Shown: positions 8,655-60,901, counted from the first letter of the stretch. The stretch is 63,627 bases of DNA from a virus (IMGVR_UViG_3300021341_000078:1-63627), one strand, 5' to 3'. The notes: generated from the sequence alone by a model not told the origin. Translations and numbers: made by a program.

Positions 8655-9455
8655 ATGTCTAAAAGCAACAAAAAATATCTCAATGTGCTAAAGAACCTAG
8701 CCATCTATAAGTTCTTAACTCTAGAACAGATGGTGCGTTTGGGTGTGGATAACCATAAGACAAACATATCAACTGAGACAGCAACAATGATTAGGGATGG
8801 CCACGCCAATAAGATCTCAAAAAGCGACACCTCTCCAGCAGTTTACTATCTAACAAGAAAGGGTGCTACACGAGCAGAACACATCTTTGATATTACTCCT
8901 AGATACCCTAAAAGGAAAATGGATAAGATGGTAGACGACATGCCTCACAGACTATCAATTGTTGATCTACACATAGAGATATCTAGGTTCAACGTAATAC
9001 AACACTGGAGAGAGTTCGACTACGTAGGTGTGCAACGACAAAAGAACCTAGAGAAAGCAAGCAAGATAAATCTAGGACGAACATCACTAGTACCAGACCT
9101 AATCTTCAAACTCAACACAGACCAAGGACAAAGACTATACCTCGCAGAGGTGGAAAGAACAGAGGGTAAAACGGCAGACAAGTACTATGAAGACAAAGTA
9201 CACAAGTACATCACTTTGCTCAGTAACCAAGCGGTAATAAAAAGGAAGTTCAATGTGTCTCTAATGTATACAGTACTGTTCGTTATAGACGATAGAAAAT
9301 TCATAGAAAAACTAAAGAAAAAAATACTCAAGGATAAGAACGCTGAGAAGCATAACAAAAAGAAGCTCGTAGAGAGCTTCCTATTTAAGCATTTTGATGA
9401 TGATGTTTTCACTTGGACTAACCTAGAAGGAAAGCCTAGGTTGTTGTTCTATTAG
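8655..9455 (+). CDS. Replication-relaxation (Replic_Relax)-like relaxase (standard code)
   Basis: N-terminal wHTH (YKFLTLEQ...YYLTRKG), H motif PHRL, LVPD...AEVER PD-(D/E)xK-type core; adjacent to coupling ATPase. Confidence 0.75.
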   Translation: MSKSNKKYLNVLKNLAIYKFLTLEQMVRLGVDNHKTNISTETATMIRDGHANKISKSDTSPAVYYLTRKGATRAEHIFDITPRYPKRKMDKMVDDMPHRLSIVDLHIEISRFNVIQHWREFDYVGVQRQKNLEKASKINLGRTSLVPDLIFKLNTDQGQRLYLAEVERTEGKTADKYYEDKVHKYITLLSNQAVIKRKFNVSLMYTVLFVIDDRKFIEKLKKKILKDKNAEKHNKKKLVESFLFKHFDDDVFTWTNLEGKPRLLFY

Positions 9456-10500
9456 CCATCATATACTGGATAACTGGAGCGTAGTCTTTCAACTCCTGCT
9501 CGCTAGGCTCTCTAGTAGAGAGAATGGCTTTAGAGATCTGGAACTTCATTCTAGCAGAATACACATACTTAGCGTCTTTCTTATCTATCATAGCATACCT
9601 AGTAAACAAAGCTCGTAGATCCTCATACCTTACATAGAAGAATCCATTGTCGTACGCCTTTGGTCAGTAAGAGTTCATACACTTTATTAGCTGTGTATCG
9701 TCATCGTAACCAACAATAACAAACATGTGCCCACTTCACTTACTAACTTGAGCCACATATTCTGGATGGTTGCGTGTTGCGCTCCGAGAGATCTTATTTG
9801 TCCCTGTAATCACGGTTCTTCATTGAGCCAAAGCAGATTTAAGAGACGTTAAGTCGTTTACCCTGGTATATCATGCACAGATGCCTTTTGTTACGAGAAA
9901 CTTAACTTGATCCTGTAACCAACTACCATCTGTAATAGGGTTTACTCACTTTAGGTAATACTCTTGTTTGTATGCCTCTACGAAATCGTTCCAGTGTTTA
10001 TGTCAGTATAAGAAAGTAGAGCTTCATTCTATAGCGTTCATTATATTACCTGCGTGTGCTCCAGAGAAAGAACCGCAAGCATTACTAGTACTAGGAGTTC
10101 TTTTAACTCATTGGTTTTGTGGAGTCGTCTTAGGTCACAAGTCTACCTTCTTAGGTAGCTTCTGTTCTGATCAAAATAATAGTTCATGTGGTCGATCTCT
10201 ATCGTCTGGCTGGTCGTATGCAGCGTCTTGTTCCTCTCAGGCTAGCTCCTCTCCACTATCTTTTTTTTTTGATTTGGTCATCTCGTGGAATCCTACCGCT
10301 CAAGAACCTACTGCTATACCGTTAGCTATTCTTTGTTCAAGGTCTCACTCTCAAGTGAAGAACCCATAAACCAGACCGAGCAACAATGAAAGGAAGGGTA
10401 AAACTGACTTGTATCTGTCAGGTATCAAAGGCTTTATAATGTCGATAAATCATTTCACAATAGCTGCACCAGCTACTCCTACTGTTAGTTGTGTCTCCAT
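9436..10500 (-). CDS. Holin fused in frame to papain-like C1 cysteine peptidase (candidate endolysin); recoded
   Basis: With UGA=Gly: hydrophobic holin-like N-term ending GSGAVGFHEMTK; then QNQG...ACGSFS, GHMFVIVGYDD, NSYG...NGFFY catalytic motifs; internal ATG at 10281. Confidence 0.8.
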
Positions 10501-10521
10501 AGATATAGGTAGATTGTAAAA

Positions 10522-10770
10522 CTATCTTAACACTAGCGCAAGTACTGCTGTAACCACTCACGCTATCACTATTCAGATTAACCATTTAATAGCGTATTCA
10601 TAGTCTTTACTTGCGTACTTTTTATCTGCTGACTCTATGAAAGAATCGAGCTTATTTTCTAGGGTCACAAAATTATGTTTTACGTCCTTCTCTATTTTAT
10701 CTAACTGTCACTCGATGTATTCCATCTTTGTTTCCAGCTTAACGATTGATAAACTACTCTTCTCTGTCAT
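10522..10770 (-). CDS. XhlA-like membrane lysis protein; recoded
   Basis: Coiled coil followed by KWLIGIVIAGVVTAVLALVL C-terminal TM (G from TGA). Confidence 0.6.
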
Positions 10771-10909
10771 CTGTATAAAGATTTGTCTTAATTATAAAAA
10801 GAATAAACTGAGAATTTTTTCTCATAGCACTTTCTGAGAAAGCACGTCTAGTAGCATCATAAATATTCGCACCGCAATAATTAGTTTTGAGAACCAATTC
10901 ATGTGTAGA

Positions 10910-11326
10910 TTATGATAAACACTTTTGTTTGAACAGCTTTTTTATTTTAGTAGGGAACTTATACCAGTACCACCAACCTCACAACGTAACACCTAGCCGC
11001 ATCGCATAAGCTTTTACCTTGTTTGTTCAGGAAGCTATCAGAGCCTCTCTGAATATCAGATTACTCATAGGAAGTCACAGATCCCTATAGTCTGTGAACA
11101 TCCAATCATGTAAACAAGCAGCGTTGATTGTGCGTGGCTCTACTCTCTGTATGAACATTCCGAACACCATAGGAACAGAACCTCAGTCGAACTCGTATCA
11201 CTCTGGCACTTCTACGCGCTCACCTTTCATGCTATCAGAAAGATACCAGATCAGAGGCTTGGTAGTAACTCGCTTGTTCTTCTTAGGAAGAGGAGTGATA
11301 GAGGTATAAGAAGTAAATTTTGACAT
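10910..11326 (-). CDS. DUF1353-family protein; recoded
   Basis: VPEGYEFDGGSVP...AACLHDWMF with two TGA at Gly positions. Confidence 0.8.
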
Positions 11327-11335
11327 TTTTTATTG

Positions 11336-11608
11336 TTAATCGATGTAAATCTCTCATCAGACAGCAACGATAGCATCTTGTACTGGCTGAGTGAGCTTCG
11401 CTTGCACCAAAAGATTATCCATTTCTATATTCTCAATATAAGTGAAACCATCTTCACTAGTGTACTTATCGAAGTTGTCAGTCAAACGAATAAGCTCGTC
11501 TACCAGCTGGTAGAAAGCGCCTCATTCTAGTACCGTAGTGTACGGTAGCTTTACTGTCGCCATCTGTGGTGGGGACTCTGGAGCCTCAGTAATTACTACT
11601 TCTCTCAT
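11336..11608 (-). CDS. Hypothetical protein; recoded
   Basis: Open from ATG to TAA with TGA read as Gly. Confidence 0.55.
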
Positions 11609-11612
11609 TATG

Positions 11613-12506
11613 CTAGTTTATAGTGTAAAGTATGGTTCGCGTGAAACCAAGTAGGTAAAGATTACTAGAACCGTTACTTGTTGTTCTTCTAATAAGTGGT
11701 GCTATTTTCTGTCATTTGTTCACCGTAATGTCTGCAATATCATCCCAAACGCCGCTATCTACCGTGTCCAAATGAGCCTTATTGTAAATTCATGCGCCTG
11801 TGATGGTATATTGTGCCTCTGGTCATACCAAAGCGTTAGAGACACTAGTTCAACTAGTACTAGTCTGTCTTACAAATTGAACCTTAAAACTCACATCTAT
11901 ATTTTTATCATAGTTCCAAGACAAGAACACCTTCTTGATAGTCAAATCGTAAGGCGCTGTTCGTCCAGCAAACTTATAGTTAGGATTGGGCTGTGTACTT
12001 GTTCAGTAGTTTGTAGATAGATCGTAGAAGATGCCTCTACTACTGTTAGGTCATTGCCATCTACCATTCCTGAGAGTAGCACGTCAACCTGCTGTGAAAG
12101 TATACTCAGTTTCATCTACTGAGTCTATGTCTTGGTTGTCGTCATCTACATCGTATAAGTGTGCTTTCTTGTAACTCATCGTAGGACGTGAATCATCTGC
12201 GTCTTTTTCTGCTTGAGTACCCACTGTAACAGTATCTAATCATAGGTCGGTTAGTCTAGCGTTCACAGCAGTCTCTACGTCCGTACTTGTAGCCTCCTCA
12301 AATCACCACTCGCTAGCTTCCTTCTTTATAAGCTCTTTTATAACTGGCACGTCTCAAGACTCTATCTTGATGTAGCTATGTCAGTCGTTGTCTTGATACC
12401 AGATCTCAGACAACACTAATCATGTGTACCTCCTCATGAGAGCGTCTATGTCTGGGTTGATCTCCTGAGATCCAGTTACTCGCAGCTTCTTATATTTCAA
12501 ATACAT
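11613..12506 (-). CDS. Hypothetical tail-associated protein; recoded
   Basis: 297-aa frame open apart from TGA. Confidence 0.6.
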
Positions 12507-12526
12507 CTTCTATACTCAAAATAAAA

Positions 12527-14994: not shown

Positions 14995-15060
14995 TGCCTA
15001 CTAGCGAAATAAAACCATTATTACTAGGAGAGACATCGCCTCCCCTAGGATATAATAATT

Positions 15061-16479
15061 CTACAATACTTTGTAGATAAGAACTCTCAGTTGATCTGTT
15101 GTTGAACTTGTTACTTGGATAGTATTCACACCATTTCTCACCACATCAGTTATAACCTCTGCTCCTGTAGCAACATCTACTACATTCACAATTACATCTA
15201 GTGTGTTAAGGTTGTGTGTGATAGTTTGAGCGACTGAAGCTGTAGGTGTCCAAGTCTCAGCATACCCATATCCAGCAAGCAAGTTATCAATACTTACTTT
15301 TCTGTTTGCTGTTGCAGAAGCATCGTATACAGCAACGAAGTCGTTAGTACCATCTAGTGTCGTTTCTGCTGTCAGTTCATCGATGTTAAGCGTCAATGTA
15401 ACTGTGTCAGTAGCAGCTACAGCAGTAGTAATACCTTCACCACCTGTTACTGTAAGTGTGTCTCCTAGAGTGATAGTCTCAGTACCTGTATCACCTGCAA
15501 GTGTGAACGTACCAGCAGACCATTGTGGAGCAGTTGCACCAGCATTAACTGTTAGCACTTGTCCAGCTGTACCTATAGCAAGTGTCTGCATATCTGTTCC
15601 GTCTGAGTATACAATATCTCAAGCGTTCAGGGCACCTGAATCCCAATCTATTGTAAACGTATCTCCAGCCAAAGTAACAGTTAGAAGGTCACCACCATTT
15701 ATAGTAAGAGTCTCTCCGTCTAGAATACTTCCTGTGCCTGTGTTACCAGCAGTATTTATAGAAAAAGAAGAGTTGTAAAGAGCATCTGGGTTTACTTTTC
15801 TGATAGCTCCAGCAGAAGCGTCATAGAAAGGGATGAAGTCGTTTGTTCCATCAACAGTTAGCTCGCTTGTAAGGCTATTGATGTCTAGAGTTACAGTAAC
15901 CGTATCAGTTGCGCCTGCTGCTGTTGTGATACCAACACCACCAGCAACAGTAAGTGTATCACCGCTGGTGATCGTCTCAGAACCTGTATCTCCAGCGAAG
16001 TTATAAGTAGCTAGTCCTGCTTGGCTAAACTGTGTAAACGTCAATGCTGTAGTTCCTACAGTGATAGTTCCTGAAGTAGTCAATACAAAACCACCTCCAC
16101 CGTTTGTTGTACCTTCCTCTACGAATGTGAACAATCCAGATGTTACATCTGCATCTACATCCGCGTCGATAGCTCTTGTAGGAGCACCTGTAGCGTTTAC
16201 GGTATAGATACCATTCTCACTTCCTGTTGCTTGATCCTTAATCAAGATTCTATCACCTGTAGCAAGCGTTACGCCGTCTACTGTGTCTCCGTTCTCGAAG
16301 TCAGAAGCTAGTGTTCCTGCTGCTGTCGTAGTAACTCTTACTGAATCCTTAATGTCTAAAGCTTGCTTTACCGCGTCTACATAAGCTTTTGTAGCTGCGT
16401 CTTGTGCGTTAACTGGATCTAACAAGTTAATTATCTTGTTAGAGTTCATGTCCAATTCTTGTAATACTGGTCTTGCCAT
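15061..16479 (-). CDS. Tail fibre/virion structural protein (two track ORFs joined); recoded
   Basis: Fragments in the same frame; TGA at 15619-15621 gives A-G-DIVYSDGT...LAIGTAGQVL; DAATKAYVD and GDRILIKDQ...ENGIY motifs; internal AGDTG-ETIT repeats. Confidence 0.85.
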
Positions 16480-16518
16480 GTGTATAAGTGGAATATAAAA
16501 TATGTGTTTGCGTGGGGT

Positions 16519-22898: not shown

Positions 22899-23759
22899 CT
22901 AGTATATGTATGTTTCTCTAAAAGAAATGCTTACTGGTATAGTTGTGCTACCGTTCCCATCTAGTACTACTATCTCATTTAGTCATGGGTTCAGGAATAC
23001 AGGCTCTCAGCTCTCTCTGTTCGCTGATATATCGTTACCGTTGTCAGTAACTACTAGCTGAGAGAGTGGATCGTTGTTTGGGTTTGTGGTGTCGTGTACA
23101 AGTAGGGTAGTAGATCCGTTCAGCCTGTATTGACGGTTGTTTGTGAAGTTGATAATCTGGCAGTTCGAGCAGCTACCAGTCACCGTAATAGTACAAGGAG
23201 CAAGCCAGTTACCGTTGTTCGTAACAGATAGCGCATTTGTGTAGACTCCTAGCGTGTTTGGTAGTGTGTTGCTTAGTAGATTACCTGTAAATGTTCCTGT
23301 TGTACCAGTAACCGTAGTAGTTGTTGTAGAAAACACCTCTGGTCACTCTGCGTACAGTGAGAAGCTGAATCTTATGTAAGGATCACACACATCATTGGTA
23401 GGTGCTGGCATCCTAAACACCTTAGCTTTTACTGTTCTATCGTTACCAGCGTCATCCTGCCAAGTGAGATCATAGAAAGCGTTATCTGTAGGGTTAGGTT
23501 CTGGAGCTATGAGTGAAAAAAGGTTATTCCAAGGGGTGTGTCTTTCGGCTTTCGTGTATCAAAAGATTATACCTTCAAACTCGAATATCCTACCACCTGC
23601 AAGCGTGTTACTACTATACGTTCAGTGGAAGTTAGCTCTGTTGAAGATATCTGTCCTAAGCGGTACGTTCCTATCAGCGCTCTGTAGTACTATCTTGTTG
23701 GTAGCGCCTAGTGTGTCAGCAAAGCTTGTTCACTTGTAAGATCGGTTCTGTCCTATCAT
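22899..23759 (-). CDS. Distal tail protein (Dit-like); recoded
   Basis: Follows TMP; VTNNGNWLAPCTITVTG and FLNPGLNEI motifs. Confidence 0.75.
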
Positions 23760-26713
23760 TATCTAATGAAGTTACGTTCTAAATTACTTGCAACCTCTGG
23801 ACTGGTAACATTAAATGTTTGGTTTGTTGTGTTGTTGTTTGTAGTGCTTCCTGCTCACGTACTAGATATAGATCTAGCTATCCTCTGAGCCTCCAGAGCT
23901 TTCTCAATTAACTCATCGTACAACTCTTTTCTTCTAGAAACCTCTATCCCAAGCCTTGCAGTAACCTCTTCTTCAAAGCTGATCTGCTTGTTCTTTACGT
24001 TTTCTAGTATCTCTAGTTCTAGTTGCTTCTGCTCTTGTAGTCTCTCTGTCTCTGTAGCGAGCAATTCTATTTTCTGCTCTATAGCTTGTACTTCTTTGTC
24101 TCTTTCTTCTAGTATTCTCTCAGCAGCAGAAAGCCCTGCTTGTCTAACAGCTTCAGCTCTTTCTTCAGCAGTAGTATTAGCCTCAATAAGCTCTTTTTCC
24201 CTCTGTAGAGCTAGTATTCTTTCACTAGCAGCATTTCTTTCTTCTGACGTGCTATCATCATCGTTCAAAATAGATCTTGCTTCAGCTATATCTTCATCTA
24301 CGTCCACTCATCTACTAGCTAGGTCAGTTTGTGCATCAGCGTTTATTTGCTCTATTTCGCTTCTCAAGTCTCCTATTTCCTGTACAGATTCTTTGATCTT
24401 GTCGGTTAGTTCGTCAACTCTATCTTGTTGATCTTCTACTGCATCTCAGATAGCATCATACACTTCCTTAGCCTCCTTTTCTGCGTCTTTTAGAGCATCT
24501 GATCTTCTCTTTTCTGATTGTTTTTGTAGCTCCTGTATCTCTTTTTCTGACTCCTTGATGATCTTTTGTCTTTCTTTTTCCGCCTCATCAGTGTCGCTTA
24601 CTGCTCTACTTCTTCTTCCTCCTGAACTACTACCTCCTCAAGCAACGCTTGTCTCAAAGAACCTATCGAAATCTTCTACGTCTTGTCTTGTTTCCTTGAT
24701 CTGAGCAGAAACAGCTTGTAGTCTAGCCGCTTGTGCGACTCTATCAGCATCAAATGCAACAGGTCAAGAACCACTAGCAAAGATATCTGTAGCAACTCAC
24801 ACCAGTCTAAGAGAATCTGCTAGAGCTATGATACTATCTATTGTTCCTAGAGCCTCTTGTTTTATTGCGTTCAGTTGCTCCTGTGAGTTAGCGGTATTTA
24901 GAGAAGCAAACACACCATTCAATGTTCTCGTAATGCTAGAAGTGGAGTCTAGCGTTAATCAAGCCTCATCTGCTCTTGTTTGTAGCTCAGACAGTTCTTG
25001 TACGTAGCTATCTATGTCGATAGTACCGTTAATAAGCTGTTGTCACAGGTTATCTAAAGCTGGCACTAGCCCCTCTACTACCTGTGTTTGTACGCTGGAC
25101 ACAAATTCTCACACTCTCTGTATCTCGTTTCCGTACTCATCAGCGCTAATCTCTCAGTTCTTAAACTGAGTAGTCAGATCATCTATCTTGTCGTTCAGTA
25201 ATCCAAGAGCCTCTTCAGAGGTCTTTGCTTCTTCGGTTATTTCCTCAAACGTAAGTCCTAGACCACGAGCCTCGTTTACTATTTCTGAAAGTGGCTTTCC
25301 TATATCCTCCAAACCGTCAGCGAGAAACTTACTGAACCTTGTTGCGGCTTCTGTAGCTCTTACCAAAGCTGGCACAAAGTTCTCACCTATTTCTGCTCTG
25401 TTTTGTCTTATCTCTTCTCTAAGCTGTCAAAGTCTCGCCTCTGTAGTCTGGAATCTCTTCTCTGCTTCTTCTTGTAACGAGTTTTGTGTCTCTAGTTCCC
25501 GATTCGCTGTTCTAAGCGCATCAGAAAGTATATCACTACCAGCAGCAAGCGATAGGAAAGCGTTTCTGGTTCTTACGTTAGATCAGAAGAGGTCGTCAAT
25601 AATGTTCACAGCATCTTCTCCAGACTCAGCTAGTCCTTCGATCAAAGATGTAAACGCTTCACCTGCATCGTCTCTAAATCTTTGTGCGAACTCTTCAGAA
25701 GTTTGTCACGCTAGATCTGCAAACTTCTGCAACTCGTCACCTCCAGTAGATACCGCAGCCTGTATAGCAATAAACGACTTACTAACAGCTGTACCTCAAG
25801 CTTCTGCTTGTATACCAAGAGAAGAAAGTGATGTAGCAATAGCCTGTAGGTCCTGTTGTGCGAATCACGCAGCAGCACCAGCAGAAGAAAGCCTTTGTGT
25901 GAAGGTCAATATCTCTCTCTCAGTAGTAGCAAAGTTGTTACCTAGCTTTACGGTAACAGTCGCTAGCTCCTCAACTCTATCAAGCGGAATATTAAGTACG
26001 TTCGCGAGTCTAGCAAAATCTGTAGCAGCCTGTTCAGTAGTAATATTGGTGGTTGCTGCAATCTTTACTACCGTGTCAGTAAATGTTCCTATATCGTCTA
26101 CAGCCACACCCAACTGACCAGCTAGTTCAGCTACTCTTGCTATCTCCTCAAAAGGTAGTCCAAGGCTAGTAGATAGCCTTCATAACTCTTTTCTTAGCAA
26201 CCCAAACTGTATTTCTGTAGCGTCTACCGTTTTTCTTACTCCTGTGAATGCGCTTTCAAAAGCGATCACGTCTCTAACCCCTTGAGAAACCTGCCTACCA
26301 AGCGCCACAATACCAGCTCACACAGCCCCTATAGCCGTTCAAAATCCAAGAACCCTACTAGAAAGGCTACTAATGCTTCCTGAAACCTGATTAAACTTAG
26401 ATTGTAACCTAGATAGCGCTGGGTCTCCAGTGTTGGTAAAGTTTGTGAGCCTTCTTCTAGCCTCTGTAAGATCTTTTTTTGCTCTCTCCAGATCTATCCT
26501 TAACTCTCTAGGAGCTTTCGTTATATCATCAAATTTCTTTACCTCGTTCCTGAGGTTCTGTACTCTCAAGAAAGCGTTATCTATATTGATCTCTAGCTGT
26601 TTTCTTAGCTGTGGGTCTAGTGTTTTTAGTGTATCACGAGCCTTAGTGACACCGTCTCATACTCCATCGGTGTTCACTACAATCTTGGCTTCAAGTGGCT
26701 CTAGTAATACCAT
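23759..26713 (-). CDS. Tape measure protein (TP901-like core, ~984 aa); recoded
   Basis: Four track fragments all in one frame; FESAFTGVRKTVD...AGQLGV...LGNNFATTEREI. Confidence 0.9.
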
Positions 26714-27396: not shown

Positions 27397-28275
27397 TTAT
27401 TGTTGCCAAGTTTTCTTCCAAACGATGTATAGACCTCCATCCCTGCAAGTGAACTCAGCTGGACTACCAGCGAAATCAGTTCTACTTCTGTTGACGTAAG
27501 TTCTAGCAAGTTCTCCTGTCAATGCTGCTTTTGAGAAATAAGCGATAGTCTGAGAATAGTTTGTCAGACCGTTACTTGAATCTACACTACCAGCCTGAGC
27601 ACAAGAAACAAACTTGTACAACCCCAAAGGAATACTTTGTTTTTCTACTCTATATCCTGTTAGTTGCTTGTCTCTAGGTGTGTAATCGTAAACGATAACT
27701 AGATCCTGAGCGATGGTAGTAACACTACCTGCAATAGCTGGAACAGTAACTACTGTTCTACCTAGTGCGTCTTGTGTTACTGTGTAATCAGCAGGAGCTA
27801 TAACACCATCCACAGAACCTGTTACAGAAGTAACAGTGATAGCAGAACCGTCTCCGTTTTGGTTACATAGAGCGATAGCAGTAGCTAGTGCCCAGTTTCC
27901 AGAAGCCACAGTTTGCGGAAATCAAGGGACAGCAGCACCAGTAACGCTAACAGTGCTAGTTCCTAGCATATTTGCTAGTACGTCTAGGTTATTTACGTCT
28001 AACCAAGTGAAGCTGATAGATGGGATGATCTTTGCTGAAAGATCAATAGTACCTACATCGCAGTTATCTACGATGATCTCTTCTTCTGAATCTAGAGTGT
28101 GTCCTTCTGAGAAATCTTGGATCTGTCCTACTGTAGAGTAAGCATATGTCTCAAGATCACATCTAAGACTTTCTAGGTTCGCAGCGGTTGGTGTAGCGAA
28201 TGTTCTGCTACTATCGAAGTTTGTTGAGTAGTACAGATCACCAGCCGTAGCCAACTTATCAAGTGTAAGTGTCAT
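27397..28275 (-). CDS. Major tail tube protein; recoded
   Basis: Two track fragments joined by a single TGA at 27922; canonical position. Confidence 0.75.
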
Positions 28276-28533
28276 TTGTATGTGAGTACGAAATAAAATT
28301 AGCAATTACAGTCTCTACCTGAGTGGCATACAATATGATCTTTGAGAACCTTGCAATCCTCACAAGAGAGTTCGTATTGTTGTCCTTGGGTGTAGAAAAC
28401 ACCTTGGTGACTTACGTTTCTCTTGAAGATCACTTTACTAGTAGAAGCTGTTTTACCAGCTTTCTTCTCTACTTTCTTCTCCTCGTTCTCTGGCATCATC
28501 TTGTTGGCTACCTCGGTCATTTTCTTTTCCTCC

Positions 28534-30300: not shown

Positions 30301-30314
30301 TGCAATCAGTTATA

Positions 30315-31821: not shown

Positions 31822-31846
31822 TTGTAGTAAATAAATAGATATAAAA

Positions 31847-33094: not shown

Positions 33095-33173
33095 GTGTAG
33101 TAGTAGTTATAAATACACCATAGCTACATACAGACCCCCTGCCCACGCTAGTAATCAAGAGGTCTGTGTGTAA

Positions 33174-35515: not shown

Positions 35516-35534
35516 CTTTGAGAAAATTGAAGTT

Positions 35535-36209: not shown

Positions 36210-36293
36210 TTGGTCTATTACCGATTGACAGAGATTTGTACGGCCAGATTGACCGAAACAACTATCTTCAAATTTCAGTAAAATTAAATTGAG

Positions 36294-36324
36294 TAGAGCG
36301 TATCTAGAGTTTAGATACGCTCTA
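36294..36324. terminator. Perfect 13-bp hairpin
   Basis: TAGAGCGTATCTA-GAGTT-TAGATACGCTCTA. Confidence 0.55.
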
Positions 36325-36356
36325 TTTAAATAGAGTACGTTCCGTCAGATACTATC

Positions 36357-39003: not shown

Positions 39004-39101
39004 ACAAAAACTTTGTCTTGTTTTCGTCCAGATTAATAGAGTTGATTTGCTTTTAAGGTTATAATTTGGCACACTCAACGTACCAACACAAACCAAAAAC
39101 T

Positions 39102-40136
39102 ATGTTCGTACTAAATCTATTGGCTGGTATCACAGCCGTTTTGGGTGGCTACTACAGGTTTTTGAAGTTCTCTCGAATAAATGATGAGGTTGAAGAATAC
39201 AAGAAAAAGAACGGTAGAATATGGGAAAAAATAGATAACTCGAAATTCAGAGAACTACCAGCCATTGTTATTAGGTGGTATCTACGACTAAGTACGCCTT
39301 TCAAGAATATTTACGCGGAGCTTGAAAAAAGAGGCGTAAGTGGGAAAGTTCCTAAGTTCTTTTACTATGGCTTTATGATAATAGGCACAGCGTGTTTTAG
39401 TCTTTCCTTATTCGCTTTTCAAAACCACCTACTTTACTTTGTTTTCTTGCTTTTGTTCTTGGGTATCCCTGTAGTTTTTCAAAATGATCAGACCTTTAAT
39501 TTATCTGAAGGTCAGGGAATTTACGCTTTTGGTAAGTACATGACTATACTTTTCCTTAGCCTTTTGATAACATCTTCTTCGCTCATCCTTGGGGATGAAG
39601 TAACTTGGAATGATTTTAGTATTGTATCAGACTTAGAAGTAAGGACACTAGTTTTTTCGATACTTTTTAGCAATGTAATATTTGATCTTCTGACCGTATT
39701 CATAACGTACTTCATTCTTAAGAGAGCACTAAACAACCGACGATTCCTTTTCCTCTTTATATCCCTTGACATCATAATGTCAGCGTGTTTCTCTATTTAC
39801 TCCATCTATTTTGGCTTGCTAGGCACAGAGCAGAGTATAGACCTTCTGGAAGCAACACGTATGCTTATAGGTCTTTCTCCAGATGGTAGTATGTGGCAGT
39901 TTGGGTCTTACTTTTGGGCGATGCACACTACCTTCATACCGACACTAATATACTTGAGTGTGTTAATCCTGATGATTATAGCAAAGTACATAACGATACC
40001 TGTAGCTAATTTTTTCTACAGAGCAAGTGTTACTGAAGACCCATACATGATGTACGCCTTTTTCTACGTTACATTGTCTGGTATCTTCCTTTTGATAAGT
40101 TTTGTAATGGGATATTACTTAAAAAGCCCCTCGTAA
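39102..40136 (+). CDS. Multi-TM membrane protein (standard-code moron)
   Basis: Many hydrophobic helices, no TGA, opposite strand to late genes; hairpin 40121-40146 follows. Confidence 0.75.
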   Translation: MFVLNLLAGITAVLGGYYRFLKFSRINDEVEEYKKKNGRIWEKIDNSKFRELPAIVIRWYLRLSTPFKNIYAELEKRGVSGKVPKFFYYGFMIIGTACFSLSLFAFQNHLLYFVFLLLFLGIPVVFQNDQTFNLSEGQGIYAFGKYMTILFLSLLITSSSLILGDEVTWNDFSIVSDLEVRTLVFSILFSNVIFDLLTVFITYFILKRALNNRRFLFLFISLDIIMSACFSIYSIYFGLLGTEQSIDLLEATRMLIGLSPDGSMWQFGSYFWAMHTTFIPTLIYLSVLILMIIAKYITIPVANFFYRASVTEDPYMMYAFFYVTLSGIFLLISFVMGYYLKSPS

Positions 40137-43796: not shown

Positions 43797-44219
43797 ATGG
43801 AATATTTATACGCTTTGCTGGCGTTTCCACTAGCTTCTTGAGTACTTTATTACTTCTTAGTGTATAGGAAAAAACCTTGGAAGTGCAAGGGTAAATGAGA
43901 TCCCAGAAGCATGACTCCTGAGCAATTCGAGGCGTATACCGCCCACTGGCTTTCTAAGCATTGACGACGTAATGTAAAGGTGACTGCTCACGTAAAGGAC
44001 GGCGGCAAGGATGTGGTAGCATGGAAGAGGAGAAAGAAATATTACATCGAGTGCAAGAGATATACTAACTCTACGGTAGGTGTCGCCATAGTACGTTCTA
44101 TCTACTGAGTAGCACAAGCGGATTGAGTAAAAGCTGGTCTAGCGTATGTATGAAAACTATCAAAGGATGCTCGTAAATTTGCTGACAAAAACAAAGTGTT
44201 ATTGCTGGATTTCAACTAG
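43797..44219 (+). CDS. Mrr-like restriction endonuclease domain with N-terminal TM; recoded
   Basis: MTPEQFE...HGW(CGA)...DGGKDV...IECKRY...VG...VR..YG. Confidence 0.8.
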
Positions 44220-44977: not shown

Positions 44978-45874
44978 ATGAACGTACTCTCATTGTTTGA
45001 TTGAATATCTTGTTGACAGATTGCGCTTGAACGCGCAGGAATAAAAGTAGATAAGTATTTCGCAAGCGAGATAGACAAGTATGCTATAGCCGTTACGCAA
45101 GCTAACTATCCCCACACCATACAAATAGGCTCAGTAGAAAACTGGAGGGAACGAAATTTGCCAAATATCGACTTAGTAATAGGAGGCTCTCCTTGCCAGT
45201 GATTCAGTATAGCGTGACAGTGACTAAACTTTGACGACCCTAGAAGCAAATTGTTCTTTACAATGGTAGACATTATAAATCAGTACCAGCCAAAGTACTT
45301 TTTGCTAGAAAATGTTAAGATGAAAAAAGAACGAGAAGATATTATAACTGAACATATGGAAGTAGAACCTATAGAGATAAATAGCGCCCTCGTGTCCGCT
45401 CAAAGTAGAAAAAGACTGTATTGGACTAATATAGAAGGAGTGACACAGCCAGACGATAAGGGGATATTATTAAGGGATGTGCTAGAACCAAACAACAAAG
45501 AACATCACCGCATAAGACCCATGAGGTTAATCACAAACTCAAAGAACAGAAAAAAAACTTTATGTAATCAAATAGGCATAGCTACTGACATAAGCCAAAA
45601 CTACGAGATTATGACAAGAGTATATAGCGTACTAGGCAAATGTCCAACAATAACAAAAATAGAGGGAGGGAATAGGGAGCCGAAGGTCGCTGTCAATAAC
45701 AACTCTTGGAGAAGGGTGACTCCTTTGGAGTGTGAAAGACTACAAAATGTACCTGATAATTATACCTTTGTCCCCTTTTGAAAAAGAATGATGAGTAACT
45801 CGCAAAGATACAAGATGCTTGGGAACGGGCGGACAGTGAACGTAATAAGTCACATATTCTGAAACATTAAATAA
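44978..45874 (+). CDS. DNA cytosine-5 methyltransferase; recoded
   Basis: MNVLSLFDG(TGA)ISCG, GGSPCQG(TGA)FS, LLENV, MLGNGW(CGG)TV. Confidence 0.93.
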
Positions 45875-48869: not shown

Positions 48870-49574
48870 ATGGCGAACTGAAAAAGATCTTTTGTCTTAT
48901 ACAAAGATCTATTACATACATTCCAAATGCTTACAGATGAGGAAGCAGGAAAGCTAATAAAGCATTTGCTTTCATATGTTAATGATGAAGCTCCTGTGTT
49001 AGAAGATAGGATGTTAGAAATAGTATTTGAGCCTATAAAACAATCTCTAAAGAGGGATTTAGATAAACGACAAGAGATCAAAAAAAAGAGGTCAGAGGCT
49101 TGAAAGCAAGGTTGAAGACCTAAGAAAAAGCAAAAAAAGCAAATGCTTTCTGGGAAAGCAAAAAAAGCTGTAAGTGTTAATGTAAGTGTAAGTGATAGTG
49201 TAAGTGTAATAAATAATAAAAAAGATTTAGAGAAAACCTTGGAAGATTTCTATCAGCATAGGAAGAAGATCAAATCACCTATGACAGATCTTGCTAAGAA
49301 GAAACTTTTGAACAGATTAAATGAGTTGGGTTCTACTGAACAGGAAAAGATTTTGATTCTAGAAGAATCTATACTAAACTGACGGAAAGGTGTATTTGAA
49401 CTGAAAGAAGAAAACAAGCCTAGAGATGAAGACTGGCGGCTAAGAGAATACCACGCCCTGAGAGAGGACTGGGGCAAAGCGTTTAGAGAAAAGTACTGAC
49501 CTGAGAAACACGTAGAGATCAAAGCTATCTACAAAAAGAAATGCCTAGACAGTGTTTTATATCCTGACAAATAA
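48870..49574 (+). CDS. Phage replication initiator (DUF6291-like N-terminus); recoded
   Basis: KRSFVLY...LTDEEAGKLIK...KRSEAGKQGGRP; C-term ESILNGW(CGG)KGVF. Confidence 0.8.
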
Positions 49575-49576
49575 AA

Positions 49577-50407
49577 ATGGAGAACGTACGAGACTTCAAT
49601 CAGGATCTAGAGATGGACTTTGGGAGGCTAGCAAGGTATACACGATGACTAGATGTTCTAGATAAAAAGTTTGGGAAACCAGACAACGGAGATCTGATAG
49701 TGCTAGTTGGTTATCCTTGAATGTGAAAGACAGAGTTTTCCTTCTTCATGTCTAAGCAGAACCTGAAAAAAGGTAACAGAGTTGCCTACCTATCGTTAGA
49801 GCTGACCAAGAAACAACTGATACACAGGATAGCAAGAAAGAACGCGTGAGTTTCGTACCAAGACTTCCAGAACGGAAACTATTCTGAAAGACAAATAGAA
49901 ATAATCAAACAAGAGATACAGTGGTTCAAAGACCAAAAGAAACTATGGATGATTTGAGCTAACAACGAACCAAGCATAGATGAGGTTGAAGAACTGATTA
50001 GGGAGTGTAACGATAAGTGATTCCAGATGATTGTCATTGACAACCTAGGGAAGATCGAATGATGTGCTACGGATCTAGACAGACAAGCGAAAGCAACATC
50101 GAAGCTACAGACCATAAAGAATGAGTTAAACCTAGACATAACACTCCTGCACCATCTTAGAAAACCTAGTAAGTCTGATGTATTAAAACCGTGATGAGGA
50201 TCTGCGTTTAGTGGGAGTCAAAAGATCAAAGACAACTGCTCAGTGATGGTAGAGATACGAAGAGATCTAGACCCCTACGAGACCAGACCAGAAAAGAAAG
50301 CAGAGGTGTTATTCCTGCAATACAAACAGACATGGGATGGTATAACCTGAGCACAAGAGATGTACTTCAACAGATGAGAATATAACGAGCATTATATCCC
50401 TAACTAA
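49577..50407 (+). CDS. DnaB-like replicative helicase; recoded
   Basis: Walker A VGYPG(TGA)MG(TGA)KT, YLSLEL, IVIDNL, LHHLRK. Confidence 0.85.
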
Positions 50408-50847: not shown

Positions 50848-51891
50848 ATGTATACTTATAAGTTTAGAATCTACCCCAATAAAGAACAGCAAGCATTACT
50901 TGCAAATAGCTTCTGATGTTGTAGGTTTGTTTACAATAAGTGAATAGCGACTCGGCAAGAGATGTACAAAAAGTGAGAAAAGGCAAACTACTATACGCTT
51001 GCGTGACTACTAAAAGAACGGAAGCAAGAGCTGCCACGATTAAAAGTCGCATACTCGCAGTCATTGCAACAGTCCTTAAAGAATCTTGACCGTGCTTACA
51101 AAAACTTTTTTGCTAAGCGTAGCAAGTATCCACGCTTCAAGAAGAAGTTTGCAAAACAATCTTGTCACTTCCCACAACACACAAGCATAGAGGGGATGAA
51201 AATCAAGTTCCCTAAACTATGACTTGTGAGGTGTAAGCTCCATAGGAGTGTAGAGGGATGTATCAAGAATATGACTATCACACGTAATCCATCTTGAAAG
51301 TACTACGTCAGTATTTGCACTGACCATGCTCCACAAAAACCACGTGGCACTGGTAGTGTGGGCATTGATGTTGGTATTAAAGAACTTGGCTACTGTAGTG
51401 ATGGTTATGTGATAAAGAATCCAAAGTTTCTCAAGAAAGCTATGAAAAGACTAAAGAAACAGCAGAGATTCATGAGTAGAAAAAAGAAGGGAAGCAGAAA
51501 CAGGAATAAACAAAGAGTAAGAGTAGCAAGACTTTATGAGAAAGTAACCAGCCAGCGTAGGGATTACCTACACAAAGTGTCTACTAGACTACAGAAGAAC
51601 TATGAGACAGTAGTAGTTGAGGATCTAAATATCAATAATATGGTAAAGAACCATTGCCTTGCACAAGCCATTATAGATGTAAGTCGATGAATGTTCTTCA
51701 CTATGCTAGACTACAAAACGAATTTAATCAAGGTAAAGCCACACAACACATCCAAGACCTGTAGTAGGTGTGGTCATGTAAAAGAAAAGCTAAGTCTTGA
51801 AGTGAGAGCGTACACTTGCGGTGCGTGCTGACTGATAATCGATAGAGACTACAATGCTAGTCTCAACATATTAGCAAGGGCTACTACTTAG
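50848..51891 (+). CDS. tnpB: IS200/IS605-family TnpB RNA-guided nuclease; recoded
   Basis: YKFRIYP...FG(TGA)CCRFVYN, PW(CGA)LK, GIDVG, VVEDL, DVSW(CGA)G(TGA)MF, TSKTCSRCG...C..CG...DRDYNA. Confidence 0.93.
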
Positions 51892-52026
51892 ATTTTAGAA
51901 CTACTCGGTAGTAACTGGTAGCGTAGGTACTACGCGAACCGAGCTTAAGCTCAACGCCTGTGGAGAGTGTAGGTTACGAACTCTATGAAGCAGGAAGCCG
52001 TCGGACTTTAGTCCTTGGTAGTTCAC
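51892..52026 (+). ncRNA. Putative TnpB omega/reRNA scaffold and IS right end
   Basis: ACGCCTGTGGAGAG...ACTCTATGAAGCAGGAAGCC, hairpin GGACTTTAGTCC, terminal GTTCAC. Confidence 0.65.
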
Positions 52027-53870: not shown

Positions 53871-53883
53871 ATCTCTACCTACA

Positions 53884-54246: not shown

Positions 54247-54518
54247 AGCTGAATACACAGAAGATAAAATACTGATGTAACTTCTGTGAGGAGTGTGGGT
54301 GTAAGAAGCATCGACTACCGTTCCAGATCCACCACGTAGTCTACAGATCTGAGGCTTGACGACACAAGAACATAAACCACCCAGATAACCTATTGATAGT
54401 ATGTGCGCCTTGCCACCAGAAGATACACTCTAACAAGAAGGCGTATCAAGCAAAACGAGTAAAAAAGAGAGACTTATGGAGAGTGTTCCCAGATGTGTTA
54501 CATGACAAGTACAAGTAG
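54228..54518 (+). CDS. HNH endonuclease; recoded
   Basis: CEECG...IHHV...NLLIVCAPCHQKIH. Confidence 0.75.
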
Positions 54519-54543
54519 AAAGTTTTATTACCTAAACTTTTTT

Positions 54544-54972
54544 ATGAAAGAGAGGCGAGTTCCAGTCACTTGATATGAGTGAAGTTATGAAGTGAGCAAT
54601 TTATGAAGAGTTAGATCCCTAGATAGATATTCTACTTCACACCAACGCGATTCTCTAGGAAATTTCTACACTAGACGCGTTAAACAAACTTGAAGGATGC
54701 TAAAGCAACAAGTCAACAACTGAGGTTATGCAAGAGTAAGACTTATGAAAAATGGGAAGTGAAAATATACTATGGTGCATAGAATAGTATACTTCTCATT
54801 CAATAAAGTCCCTTTAGCTAAAAACAACAACATTGGTATATGTTGTATTTGCCACAAAGACGACAACAGACTTAACAATAGCATTAATAACCTTTTCTAC
54901 GGTACGTACAGAGATAATGTTAGAGACATGATGAAAAAATGAAGAGAAAACTTCTTTTGAAGAAACAATTAG
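54544..54972 (+). CDS. NUMOD4-HNH homing endonuclease; recoded
   Basis: ERW(CGA)VPVTGYEGSYEVSNLGRVRS...VHR...CHKDDNRLNN..NNL. Confidence 0.88.
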
Positions 54973-57150: not shown

Positions 57151-57178
57151 TTGACAAATGTAATTCCAGAGTTATAAT
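57151..57178 (+). promoter_or_regulatory. Consensus sigma70 promoter TTGACA-N16-TATAAT
   Basis: Perfect -35 and -10 hexamers. Confidence 0.75.
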
Positions 57179-57620: not shown

Positions 57621-58397
57621 ATGAGAAAGTATACACCGCATATAATTACAGTACTAATACTAGTACTTATCGTATGAACAATACTGAATCGACCAACACA
57701 AGAAAATAAATCACAGCTAGAGAAGCTAGTAGAAGAAAGAGCTATCCTAACAGAACAAATACAACAGATAGAAGCAACAGAACAAGAGATACAGAAAGCT
57801 ATTGAACAGGAGTGTAAGAAGATGGATATAGAATGTGCAGTAGATAGCATACCAGAGAAAGTAGAGCAAGTTGTTGAAGCTAACGGAAAGGTAGAGGTAG
57901 AGGAGCAAGAACAGTCACCCACCAAGGAAGAGAAAGAGCTGATGGAGCAGATATGCAAACTAGGAACAAAGAATGGTAAAACAACTATCCTATGTGATAA
58001 CTGGGAGCTGTACTACCAACTAACTGAAATAAGTGCCAACAAGTGAGTTCCATTCAAACTTATGTTAGGTATTACTATGGCAGAAAGCCACATAGGTACA
58101 AACCGAGCACCAAAAGAAGAGTGCTCAAAGTCTAAGAACTGGGCATGACTAAAAGGAGCAAAGAAAGACGATGGATCTGTTATATGGTATACAGTAGCAG
58201 GCAAAGGTATAGAGGGGTGTTACTTGTTTAAGTTCGACTTAGTTACAGACTTCCGAAGCCATTTTGCAAACACACTACTAACCTATCAGAACGCTTGTTG
58301 ACGAGATCCAGCATGTATCTCGGTAAGATATGTGGGAGGACAAGGAACAAAGAAGAGATGGGTACAAGCAGTTAATTTATTCTATACTAATGAGTAA
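57621..58397 (+). CDS. Membrane-anchored coiled-coil protein with lysozyme/glucosaminidase-like domain; recoded
   Basis: N-terminal TM; GVPFKLMLGITMAESHIG...NWAGLK. Confidence 0.55.
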
Positions 58398-59006
58398 TGT
58401 GACAGCTAGTTTTTTGATCTAAAGAGGCAATAGAAAAGCTAATCGAGAGCTTAAAGAAAACAAGTCTCTCCTTAAGTAGACACTACTGTACTTGTGACCA
58501 CTGTGATTTAAATGGTCTTATAGAACAAGCCTCTTGCTCCTCGTGCGACACTATACTTTACGGTTCTCGGTGAAGTCCAGAACATAGAGAGGCAGAAATC
58601 GTACTAAAAGAGATAATGGAAGAGTCAGATAAGGTGCGTGAAAAGTGATGAGCATTGCTTTGTAAAAAATGTGATTCACAGATAACTCGTTTAGATTGGT
58701 CAGAAAAGGAAAGTCTTCTAAGATCCTACATAGGCGATATAGAGGAAAACAAAATTACTCTTTTTTTAGATACTAACAACAAGTAATGAAGAAGTTTCTA
58801 CTAATACGATTGCCAATCCTTTTGTGATCGTTTCTTGGAGTAATGCTTGCTTTAAAGTTTGAGCCAGTTAGACGGTCTACCTGAGAGAAGATTTGATGGA
58901 GTGTGTATGAAAGAGAAAGTGGAAAATTTGTGTGACATGCTATATATAAGTGACCTCATAAGGGTTTTCACTGACCAAAGGAAGATTTAGATAGTAATAA
59001 TAAGTA

Positions 59007-59360
59007 ATGATAGACCCACAGAAAACGATAGACCGAAACCTTGCTTTTGGAAATAAACAACAGTTTGATACAGGGAAGTATGATTGATACCTAGATTACA
59101 GCATGATGAGAGAGGAGATACGTGAGTTCTTGCTAGCCTCAGATAGTGACGATAAGGTAGAAATGGTAGATGCCTGTATAGATGTGATATTTGTAGCTCT
59201 ATGAACGCTACATAAGCTATGATTAGATGCAGAGTCGATCACTAGAGCGTATGATGAGGTGTGTAGGTCAAACGATAGCAAGATCGGAGCTAAGAAGAGA
59301 GATGGGAAAGTAACTAAGGGAGAAAACTACTCACCACCTAACCTAAATTTTGTTCTTTAA
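59007..59360 (+). CDS. MazG-like NTP pyrophosphohydrolase; recoded
   Basis: EEIRE...VEMVDACIDVIFVALG...EVCRSNDSK...DGKVTKGENY. Confidence 0.85.
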
Positions 59361-60901
59361 ATATACAAGATGTCTAGATTCAAACTTAACACACCTAGAG
59401 AAGTACACGAGAACCCAAACAGCAAGTTCCAAGCTGGTCTAAATAAGCTCAGAGAGCTTTGAGCAGAAGAATTATTACAAACCTTCACTGAGATGCGTGA
59501 GAACCAGAGAGACGCTTGAACACGAACTGAGACAGCTGATACTGCTGCTGGTCTGATCTACGATAAAATAGAGGAGGAAAAGAGCAAGAGAAAGTAGTGG
59601 CTGTTTCCATTTTGGAACATACCACAGCAACCCTTTTACCTTAGTATTACAGATGGAATTACTTACTTGATACGTATTAGCAAATTGCTTCATTTTTTCT
59701 CCACTTATTGGCTACGATAGCCCTTACTCTGAGTGGCGTTATTGTCCTGAGTTTGATGCTCCTTGCGTAGAGGAAACATTCTATAGGTTTAGAGACTGAG
59801 TATATGACTGTAGAACAGACGGTGAACGACTAGCGCATTGTGCCGATTCAGAATAACCTTATTTATTTAGTATATGGGGATGAAGAAAGTATACAGATGA
59901 TGTGAAATAGAGATAACAAGAGAATATGACGAAATCTACCACTCTATCTTTTCGAAAGACTGACGAGAGCTTGCTAGTTGATTCGGTCGGTGAGATACCA
60001 TACGGTCTGTTCGATGACCATGTCAACTTAGAGTTGATTCATTCTTAGATGAATGCTGATGAGACTTTGAAAAATATGAGGAGATGCGATACGGAAAACC
60101 ATTTTAGTTTGCAGAACAATCATTGTCTAAAGTAGATTTATCCTACCCTCACACATGGAAAAGCTCCCAACCCCACAACCTAAAAAGAGACTATTCAAGA
60201 AGCAAGAGTATCAACAGAGGCTTGCCGAAGTATTGAAGTGAAGCTGTCGGCAATGCGGTAGACTATCTAACAACCTAACAGGAGGACTATGTCCTGACTG
60301 CTTATAATACTAACCACAAACAATGTCCTATAAAAGAAAGACAGTAAACGTAACACACTTCTTTTGGTTCAACTGAAAGATACATAGAGTAGAGGACGCT
60401 TATAACTTATGACATAAAAGACAAAAGCCTATAATCACATGGCTAGAAGAGTATAACAAGGCAACACAAGAGTACTCAGGCATAGGAGATAAAAGAAAGC
60501 GCGAAAAGATTAGAAAACTAGAAAGTAAAATACGGTGATACCTGGGAAACTAGTTTTACTTTACATATAGAAATGAAACCAGACTTTACACGAGACGAAG
60601 CAATTACAGGAATGAGGAATCGGTTTATAGTATGAGTAGCAGTAGGTATACTTATATCTACGCTGGCTAGTTTTATTGTTTAATGTATAGACATGAGTAC
60701 CGTATGAGAAGAAATACTTGTAGAACTAGAAAGATGTAAAATGTTACTTTCTATGTATCAAGAAATATGAGTAGAAGGAGTTTTTTGAGCAACACTTATA
60801 TCAGAGTGAATTAATAAAGCAGAAAAGGCGATTAGTGAATGAAATATAGTAGAAATAATCAAGTCGTATGAGGAACTAAAGTCCTTTGAGTAGATAAAAA
60901 G

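Follow-up and report, generated by a model that had tools for sequence, protein, structure and literature searches.

What does TGA mean in genes that it interrupts again and again, and how could such genes be read in the chromosome in which they lie? The question is raised by IMGVR_UViG_3300021341_000078, a record of 63,627 bp entered in IMG/VR as a "provirus" and referred to here, over its whole length, as the window. Our interpretation, to which we assign a probability of about 0.8, is that the window contains a temperate tailed phage, some 59 kb long, which is inserted in the chromosome of a marine Bacteroidota at a tRNA-Ala gene and is written in two dialects, its lytic genes being locked by their use of TGA to encode glycine.

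Within a central block of the window, TGA is the sole interrupter of reading frames. Under the standard bacterial code (code 11), open reading frames (ORFs) of at least 150 amino acids cover 22.4% of the interval 9436-60894; when TGA is counted as a sense codon, they cover 69.9%. Controls in which TAG or TAA was made a sense codon gave 39.8% and 32.4%, respectively. At positions 1-9435, coverage by such ORFs goes from 69.9% under code 11 to 71.1% with TGA as sense. With a threshold of 120 amino acids, 29 ORFs are found in the window under code 11, few of them between 9.4 and 60.9 kb, and 77 under code 25 (TGA = Gly), tiling that region. All listed ORFs of the block terminate in TAA or TAG. In 64 non-overlapping code-25 ORFs of at least 80 amino acids (9436-60893), TGA occurs in frame 357 times versus 666 GGN codons, that is, about once per 42 codons and at roughly a third (34-35%) of the glycines. 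The last ORF of the block (60693-60893) still contains five TGA, and the ORFs that follow have none. An earlier interpretation of this DNA, made from the sequence only (hereafter the sequence-only reading), had claimed that TGA is a sense codon at 9436-60894 and that the broken frames do not reflect decay. Calling the genes again bears out the first point; the TAA/TAG ends, the exclusive role of TGA in breaking frames and its placement on conserved glycines (see below) agree with the second.

The block is less uniform than was implied when recoding was said to extend across the phage core. Most of the genes are recoded, but TGA is absent from 34748-35515, 36357-37610 and 39066-40136, and the ORF at 35400-36209 carries a single TGA, placed upstream of its code-11 start at 35421. 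Likewise, the tape measure, portal, capsid, protease and tail-tube fragments said to rejoin in one frame do end at TAA or TAG, but the capsid and tail-tube-like genes each have one TGA to read through. These two (30643-31884 and 27397-28305) and a fibre-like gene (15061-16479) combine a single TGA with 21 to 49 GGN codons, well under the 34% share of TGA in the phage as a whole. Genes of structural size with one TGA are also seen, as single cases, in phages of code-25 hosts (G001 and L029), and the scarcity is thus not host-specific.

To avoid bias, TGA was translated as X in all homologue searches. An exhaustive HMMER search with the large terminase yielded 150 representatives; in the 15 alignment columns occupied by TGA in the window, G accounts for 1132 of 1879 non-gap letters and W for 122. 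Most of the W letters (96) come from 13 homologues with a Trp content of 4.5-7.9%. In these 13 proteins, W falls 152 times on columns whose consensus, taken from the other 137, is G and 35 times on columns whose consensus is W; to judge from this pattern, these proteins belong to recoded relatives and went through a pipeline that applied code 4 (TGA = Trp). The remaining 137 homologues, which use the standard code, show G in 1095 of 1707 letters at the same columns and W in 26. A profile built from them scores the window terminase at 591.2 bits when TGA is read as G, as opposed to 558.7 for A, 552.1 for X and 549.5 for W. In one standard-code relative (L001, 40% identical), G stands at 10 of the 15 TGA sites and W at none. 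The helicase gives a similar picture: in all 16 homologues retrieved from a catalogue of 5.8 billion proteins, the same columns alternate between W and G, those of the Walker A glycines among them. Public protein catalogues apply code 4 to this phage clade and thereby print Trp at invariant glycines, as in the helicase Walker A motif WYPSMWKT.

Pfam scores point the same way. Summed over 12 domains in 10 proteins, they amount to 889.2 bits with G, 823.3 with X and 796.9 with W, and G equals or exceeds W in 10 of the 12. In this order, the values are 86.9/77.9/69.2 for DnaB_C, 157.2/148.1/143.2 for DNA_methylase, 76.3/66.3/60.8 for Mrr_cat, 52.9/39.5/37.6 for NUDIX, 72.8/63.6/58.3 for HTH_OrfB_IS605, 63.3/58.7/57.0 for Cas12f1-like_TNB, 42.7/40.6/38.7 for Peptidase_S78, 51.5/45.3/46.2 for DUF1353 and 75.6/70.9/74.0 for PhageMin_Tail. 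OrfB_IS605 is a tie (107.1/107.2/107.1), and G is not favoured in Terminase_3 (30.7/31.5/32.4) or in Phage_portal (72.2/73.7/72.4). When the window is aligned with its closest relative (the sister prophage, locus L013, described below), TGA stands opposite TGA 11 times and opposite GGN 8 and 12 times; TGG is never found opposite TGA.

Individual motifs singled out by the sequence-only reading fared variously. The terminase Walker A motif is present as YXGAAXXGKS on the minus strand at 38857-38886, 4 nt away from, and out of frame with, the interval 38861-38890 originally assigned to it. The helicase reads GYPXMXKT, as proposed, and both X align to the glycines of GMGKT in PDB 4nmn; the FXCCR motif of TnpB was likewise recovered. 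In the cytosine methylase, the X of FDX falls on the G of the FxG motif of M.HhaI (FAG in the PDB entry), but the X that follows PCQ, also taken for an invariant glycine, aligns to an A. The gene at 9436-10500 has NSYX and XSGH where the aligned cysteine protease 3ois has NSWG and GGH (E 0.004); its designation as a C1 peptidase is weakly supported, the only Pfam match being Peptidase_C39_2 at 23.1 bits, below the cut-off of 24. As for the general claim that TGA is Gly and not Trp, the alignments and the profile scores (591.2 versus 549.5 bits) uphold it. Altogether, these comparisons show that TGA specifies glycine across the lytic genes.

A scan of species genomes with the terminase alignment, from which 80 of 172 relatives were kept, placed a second phage of this kind in a genome whose code can be judged. 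The closest relative among these 80, L013, is part of a 234-kb contig from a metagenome bin assigned to Saprospiraceae (G004, 5.1 Mb); its terminase is 56-58% identical to that of the window, contains 13 in-frame TGA and scores 572.5 bits in the profile test when these are read as G (next best 557.1; W 553.0). A perfect direct repeat of 53 bp, the copies of which lie at 8052 and 57623, delimits L013; it corresponds to the 3' part of a tRNA-Leu(CAA) gene, next to which the integrase gene is located. G004 encodes release factor 2 (RF2): its prfB scores 459.7 bits against a cut-off of 370 and has AGGAGG and the frameshift site CTTTGAC ahead of it. In the host part of the L013 contig, 6 of 36 long ORFs end in TGA. 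A diverged relative of the window phage is thus integrated at a tRNA site of a standard-code Saprospiraceae genome. Its layout resembles that of the window: early and structural genes are recoded, the terminase is accompanied by an island without TGA, and a TGA-free arm comprises Replic_Relax, DUF87 ATPase and integrase genes. The ATPases of the two elements match by BLASTP with an E value of 3e-7 (20% identity over 403 residues) and the Replic_Relax proteins with 1e-6 (25% over 163). In both prophages, the lysogeny arm and the cargo genes are free of TGA. The island of L013 (554-6184; approximately 19.9-25.6 kb on G004 contig C15) holds genes for a 752-aa M4-peptidase-like protein and an Eco57I/TaqI-type methylase, and a 421-aa ORF beside the latter may be its nuclease; from this predicted content, the island would represent defence or cargo functions expressed from the lysogen.

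In the window, the phage is joined to DNA of Bacteroidota affinity. A flavin amine oxidase gene in the left flank has its best named homologues in Aureispira sp. (70% identity), Aquimarina (65%) and Tenacibaculum (63%), with Lacinutrix also within the 63-70% range; other homologues lie on contigs of 4-5.7 Mb. Among 201 genomes of the family of G004, the best identity is 59%, and no orthologue was found in G004 itself; a search of genome contigs likewise gave no relative of this gene. At the left edge of the window, an ORF on the minus strand (1-483) starts with a run of 16 threonines (MVPTTTT...) and matches no Pfam family. The cultured phages nearest to the window by terminase have Flavobacterium, Cellulophaga, Bacteroides and Polaribacter as hosts.

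The boundary of the phage was located from assemblies. Four seawater runs (X1-X4) contain 70-100% of sampled words of 2001-12000. In run X1, the contig graph is broken precisely at 4571-4613, the 5' half of the tRNA-Ala(GGC) gene: the contig that enters the phage (27,774 bp) begins at 4584, another of 31,393 bp reaches its end on 4571-4600 and has a different sequence to the left, and a third, of 12,705 bp, begins on 4584-4613 before diverging. The first two add up to about 59.1 kb, which would make the prophage extend from 4.58 to about 63.7 kb, with a second attachment (att) site some 90 bp past the end of the window, by the start of the integrase gene. A scan of metagenome contigs for the last 64 bases of the window gave no match. 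If 4571-4613 is the att core, the true host flank is 1-4570. A host origin of the whole of 1-9455 is rejected, as the pair of ATPase and Replic_Relax genes lies inside the att-delimited sister prophage; this pair is assigned to the phage here as well.

Read depth is alike in flank and phage in all four runs (16.9 and 14.9 in X1, about 5-7 in X2, about 2-7 in X3 and, in single bins, about 0.2-6 in X4). The junction at 9436-9455 is bridged by the 27.8-kb contig of X1 and by a 1,580-bp contig of X2 (8226-9805); among the matches listed for X3 and X4 there is no bridging contig, and depth alone supports the join in these runs. The element is thus physically part of a Bacteroidota-like chromosome. 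That TGA is Trp (code 4), that the frames are those of broken pseudogenes or that the contig is a chimera has, all three taken together, next to no probability left. Such readings could draw on the W printed at TGA sites in public catalogues and on the 1.7 bits by which Terminase_3 prefers W; they are contradicted by the near absence of W from the TGA columns of standard-code terminases (26 letters against 1095 G), by the recoded nature of the W-rich proteins themselves, by frames that TGA alone interrupts and, with respect to a chimera, by the bridging contigs, the even depth and the att repeats of the sister prophage.

Could the window's host itself read TGA as Gly, phage and host sharing one code? 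None of the 13 long TGA-free ORFs of the window ends in TGA, and the view of the host is about 4.5 kb long. However, the amine oxidase gene has 33 GGN codons and no TGA, and 1-9435 has no in-frame TGA, where the phage uses this codon for 35% of its glycines. The trinucleotide as such is not rare there (17.9 per kb in 1-9435 versus 19.3 in the phage); it never falls in frame in the long ORFs. Moreover, relatives of the amine oxidase lie in genomes of 4-6 Mb, and the sister host has RF2 and TGA stops. We consider a shared code very improbable.

If the cell stops at TGA, a decoder must come from somewhere. For UGA to be read as Gly, position 36 of the tRNA anticodon has to pair with U, which the host tRNA-Gly(UCC) does not allow, and no host tRNA is known to read UGA as Gly by wobble. 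In the window, no tRNA(UCA) was found by ARAGORN at default settings, by Rfam with E values up to 1 or by the tRNA model alone with E up to 10, the tRNA-Ala being the only tRNA present. Lowered ARAGORN thresholds, introns and mitochondrial mode yielded noise and no tRNA(UCA) in either the window or the sister prophage; a 65-nt "mt-tRNA(tca)" at 10860-10924 was rejected on account of its A+T-rich stems, its T arm of 3 bp and the lack of an Rfam match. A cloverleaf scan for anticodon TCA recovered the known tRNA-Ala as a control and gave no candidate in either prophage. In the sister prophage, Rfam and the other scans detected no tRNA besides the tRNA-Leu, and blastn of the G004 tRNAs against both prophages revealed no suppressor. 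In G004, a pattern search that recovers tRNA(UCA) in two other genomes (G005 and G007) gave 12 hits, none of which matches a tRNA. No synthetase, release factor or other translation-related Pfam domain was found in the scanned phage ORFs. In the data searched, neither of the features that go with code 25 was observed: no tRNA-Gly(UCA) was found, and the sister host has RF2. The combination of TGA-free arms and island, a missing suppressor and a TGA-free flank suggests a conflict between the codes of phage and host, and not simply a code-25 phage.

We envisage that this conflict serves as a translational lock on the lytic programme, an idea that derives from the RF2 of the sister host. In a lysogen, RF2 would end each lytic protein after about 42 codons on average. 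The TGA-free arm genes (integrase, RadC, HerA/VirD4-like ATPase, Replic_Relax and a 674-aa protein) and the cargo island would be readable by a standard-code cell, and lysogeny and cargo functions would stay expressible. Opening the lock would take a tRNA-Gly with anticodon UCA. Such a suppressor might be supplied in trans in the Bacteroidota cell, either as an unusual RNA or by a gene located on another mobile element or at a different place in the host; this is our favoured guess, at roughly even odds. We place this trans-acting or unconventional suppressor first among the possible decoders, a lytic phase in a code-25 bacterium second and a stranded prophage third.

Several observations weigh against the proposed lock or narrow its basis. 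No source of a suppressor emerged from the searches of window, sister prophage and G004, where no UCA anticodon occurs among the 31 tRNA matches of an incomplete inventory (150 candidates scored out of 251). TGA is present in 85-87% of the prophage genes and no early lytic gene is free of it; in recoded phages of standard-code hosts, the proportion of recoded genes is 26-71% according to Borges et al. (10.1101/2021.08.26.457843), a range that the window exceeds. As far as the host is concerned, the roughly 4.5 kb in view leave RF2, the tRNA set and TGA stops outside, and the TAA/TAG ends of all 13 long TGA-free ORFs have a probability of about 0.09 given the 17% TGA stops of the sister host. 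The sister genome G004 is a bin from a metagenome, in which RF2 is encoded on a contig other than that of L013. Finally, the right att copy would lie outside the window, and runs X1 and X2 are perhaps the window's own source samples, hence not independent.

The relatives of the phage provide a second setting in which its genes could be read. Three recoded terminase loci (L017, L029 and L085) and an unrecoded one (L014) reside in genomes of about 1 Mb; each of these four genomes has a single release-factor match, which does not reach the RF2 cut-off and whose matched stretch includes TGA in three of the genomes. Both RF2-less genomes in which the pattern was searched (G005 and G007) contain tRNA(UCA). 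The window pairs with L013 in the tree of terminases (80 rows, two loci shorter than 380 amino acids having been dropped), with a support of 99 in the Shimodaira-Hasegawa-like approximate likelihood ratio test (SH-aLRT), and L017 is sister to this pair (94); 52 of the 80 rows are Bacteroidota prophages without TGA. Two relatives identified through the helicase (G001 and G002), 99% and 100% complete by CheckV, are TGA-recoded and have no tRNA. In the code-25-host phages compared here, 87-96% of the genes carry TGA. Blastp found no homologues of the ATPase, Replic_Relax, integrase or RadC in G001, G002, L017, L029, L085, L218 or L004. In a small sample of integrases from code-25 genomes, three of five have TGA in the catalytic domain. 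Recoded terminases are rare overall: 1 in 401 genomes of the family of G004, 1 in 79 IMG/VR terminase loci and 5 in 80 metagenome loci. One further recoded terminase (L246, 47% identical, 11 TGA) sits in the middle of a 481,410-bp metagenome contig (214-236 kb), where the readable 21 kb are all recoded and a tRNA-Thr is present.

These data permit a cycle with two hosts, in which lysogeny, and perhaps DNA transfer, would take place in a standard-code Bacteroidota, and the lytic genes would be translated only in a code-25 bacterium of the Gracilibacteria/Absconditabacteria type, with tRNA-Gly(UCA) and without RF2. We hold this to be unlikely. In its favour can be cited the lack of a suppressor tRNA in either prophage or in G004, a share of recoded genes like that of code-25-host phages, the sister position of L017, which is in an RF2-less genome with tRNA(UCA), and the recoding of all 16 helicase homologues, among which the whole relatives G001 and G002 have no tRNA. 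Every TGA-free gene of the window ends in TAA or TAG and is hence legible in both codes, and the VirD4/HerA-like ATPase and Replic_Relax of the arm were not found by blastp in the seven code-25 or recoded relatives named above. In addition, matches of code-25 phages to spacers of bacteria outside the candidate phyla radiation (CPR) are reported by Liu et al. (2023, PMC10746230). Against it stand the requirement that a virion enter two very different cell types, or that DNA cross by an as yet unknown route, the putative nature of any role of the ATPase and Replic_Relax pair, and a literature search that returned nothing on a code-25 bacterium living with these hosts. In its most specific form, with a silent prophage (perhaps passed on as DNA) in the Bacteroidota cell and lysis only in a code-25 bacterium attached to or feeding on that cell, we likewise find the idea unlikely. 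If true, the prophage would be a reservoir for the parasite's phage and might even be a trap that protects the Bacteroidota host.

A further account is that of a code-25-host phage injected into the wrong cell, where its TGA-free integrase was expressed, and which is now inert and bound to decay. There is no visible way for the host to read the lytic genes, and the rarity of such elements (one recoded terminase in the 401 genomes of the sister host's family) would fit. However, two cases that have diverged to 58% identity in the terminase and 20% in the ATPase, and yet have the split-code layout and the arm in common, suggest an old composite that has been propagated. Neither prophage shows TAA, TAG or frameshift breaks, and the TGA-free cargo suggests selection for expression in a standard-code cell. 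Furthermore, glycine positions have changed from GGN to TGA in separate lineages: among terminase TGA codons matched by GGN in other relatives, three are unique to the window, two are unique to L013 and two are common to these two only. Such lineage-specific codons arose after the split of the window and L013, which implies that the Gly reading is in use somewhere in the life cycle. We regard a stranded prophage as quite improbable.

The immediate context of TGA bears on the question of RF2. In both Bacteroidota prophages, the base after TGA is C at a frequency of 0.20-0.22, as compared with 0.10-0.14 after GGN (p values of 1e-6 and 3e-5); the enrichment is weak in G001 (p 0.03) and absent from G002. 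At most, this is a hint of competition with RF2. Shine-Dalgarno use amounts to 0-12% and does not exceed the random level in any of the phage sets or in the Bacteroidota host genes, so that it gives no indication as to which cell translates the lytic genes.

The features of the window are listed in Table 1. The terminase, portal, protease, tape measure and integrase genes, together with the inferred att core, identify the element as a temperate, siphovirus-like tailed phage of about 59 kb in the integrated state, as predicted from its gene content. The recoded core of about 51 kb comprises lysis, tail, head, packaging and replication genes, the earliest ones included; RusA, NUDIX and HNH genes join the helicase, C5 methylase, Mrr-type nuclease and TnpB in the replication and DNA group. 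The absence of TGA from the integrase, versus 22 GGN, has a p value of 1e-4, and both arms are TGA-free.

Table 1. Coordinates of features in the window (TGA, number of in-frame TGA codons).
Feature	Position	Strand	Remarks
Host flank	1-4536		no in-frame TGA
Flavin amine oxidase	2287-3642	+	Pfam Amino_oxidase, 271.9 bits
tRNA-Ala(GGC)	4537-4611	-	ARAGORN; Rfam tRNA, 66.5 bits; 5' half within probable att core
Probable att core, prophage left end	4571-4613		43 bp; contig graph of run X1
TGA-free arm, left	4762-9455		0 TGA
674-aa protein	4762-6786	-	left TGA-free arm
HerA/VirD4-like ATPase	6792-8549	+	Pfam DUF87, T4SS-DNA_transf, TraG-D_C
Replic_Relax protein	8565-9455	+	Pfam Replic_Relax
Recoded core (TGA = Gly)	9436-60893		lysis, tail, head, packaging, replication
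Papain-fold peptidase-like protein, probably lysin	9436-10500	-	15 TGA
Tape measure protein	23759-26713	-	19 TGA; Pfam PhageMin_Tail, 75.6 bits
Major capsid candidate	30643-31884	-	1 TGA; position after protease; 31% identity to matching ORF of sister prophage; no Pfam match
Prohead protease	31847-33094	-	7 TGA; Pfam Peptidase_S78, 42.7 bits
Portal protein	33174-34499	-	4 TGA; Pfam Phage_portal, 72.2 bits
TGA-free cargo island, part 1	34748-37610	+	transglutaminase-like, GYF_2 membrane protein, PqiA-like (Pfam); 0 TGA from code-11 starts
Large terminase	37633-38970	-	15 TGA; Walker A 38857-38886
TGA-free cargo island, part 2	39066-40136	+	356-aa protein, no known family
Mrr_cat nuclease	43797-44219	+	6 TGA
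C5 cytosine DNA methylase	44978-45874	+	7 TGA
DnaB-like helicase	49541-50407	+	12 TGA; Pfam DnaB_C
IS605-family TnpB	50848-51891	+	8 TGA; Pfam OrfB_IS605, HTH_OrfB_IS605, Cas12f1-like_TNB
TGA-free arm, right	60910-63627		0 TGA; two small ORFs (-), RadC, integrase
RadC	61874-62335	+	Pfam
Tyrosine integrase, Arm-DNA-bind_5	62371-63627	-	Pfam; 26% identical to sister-prophage integrase

Some of these genes have features of their own. The G+C content of the first part of the cargo island is 0.36, versus 0.41 in the adjacent structural genes (32001-34000). A search of the ESM Atlas with the 674-aa protein of the left arm gave no usable match. The prohead protease has a long acidic C-terminal half with a run of about 15 glutamates and looks like a fusion to a scaffold domain. 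The TnpB gene, a transposon gene inside the replication module, has itself taken up the Gly reading of TGA; 66 bp on its 3' side, where the TnpB guide RNA is expected, there is a weak match to RAGATH-18 (51957-51996; 31.3 bits against a gathering score of 44.9). A NUMOD4/HNH homing-endonuclease-like gene (54493-54972, plus strand) with eight TGA has a homologue, 33% identical and with nine TGA, at the left end of the sister prophage.

Only two kinds of recoding, TAG to Gln and TGA to Trp, are known from phages of standard-code hosts, and in both the synthetases of the host and wobble can contribute. If RF2 holds for the window's host, the present case would imply either an unseen route of glycine suppression during induction or phages that bridge hosts with different codes. 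The two loci are concrete enough to make these questions testable, L013 being delimited to the base. A search of the literature brought up no TGA-to-Gly prophage described from a standard-code host, the supplementary tables of Borges et al. and Liu et al. being outside its reach.

Three groups of known systems can be compared with the phage. With siphoviruses of Bacteroidota (Flavobacterium phage 11b, Cellulophaga phage phi10:1 and Bacteroides phage Versailles) it shares a terminase of 35-38% identity over 94-98% of the protein; among the terminase loci checked by codon, which do not include the cultured phages, none outside the recoded ones named here has an in-frame TGA. Code-25 phages are known and have been assigned to code-25 hosts, with about 90% of their genes recoded (Borges et al. 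2021 preprint, 10.1101/2021.08.26.457843), and Liu et al. (2023, PMC10746230) describe all prophages found in Gracilibacteria and Absconditabacteria as code 25, and two code-25 phages as matched by spacers of non-CPR bacteria. The window phage is like these in its use of TGA as Gly, in the proportion of recoded genes (about 85-90%), in the absence of a suppressor tRNA and in the clustering of its terminase with L017. Unlike them, it resides in a Bacteroidota-like chromosome and has a sister in a Saprospiraceae genome of 5.1 Mb that contains RF2 and uses TGA stops, and it possesses a TGA-free att-proximal arm, for which the code-25-host relatives examined have no homologue, and a TGA-free cargo island. 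Where the code of a phage differs from that of its host, TAG-to-Gln and TGA-to-Trp are the only changes seen, and suppressor tRNAs occur in 35-40% of such genomes, again according to Borges et al. From the Garnet and Topaz clades described there (TAG = Gln or TGA = Trp), the window phage differs by the use of Gly, by the recoding of early lytic genes and in that no suppressor was found. In other respects these clades, as presented by the authors, offer a parallel: a code that, in the case of the window, would differ from the host's (the sister host reads TGA as stop, and the flank of the window shows only Bacteroidota affinity and no in-frame TGA), an integrase that avoids the recoded stop codon, recoded lytic and structural genes and, possibly, a lock on lysis.

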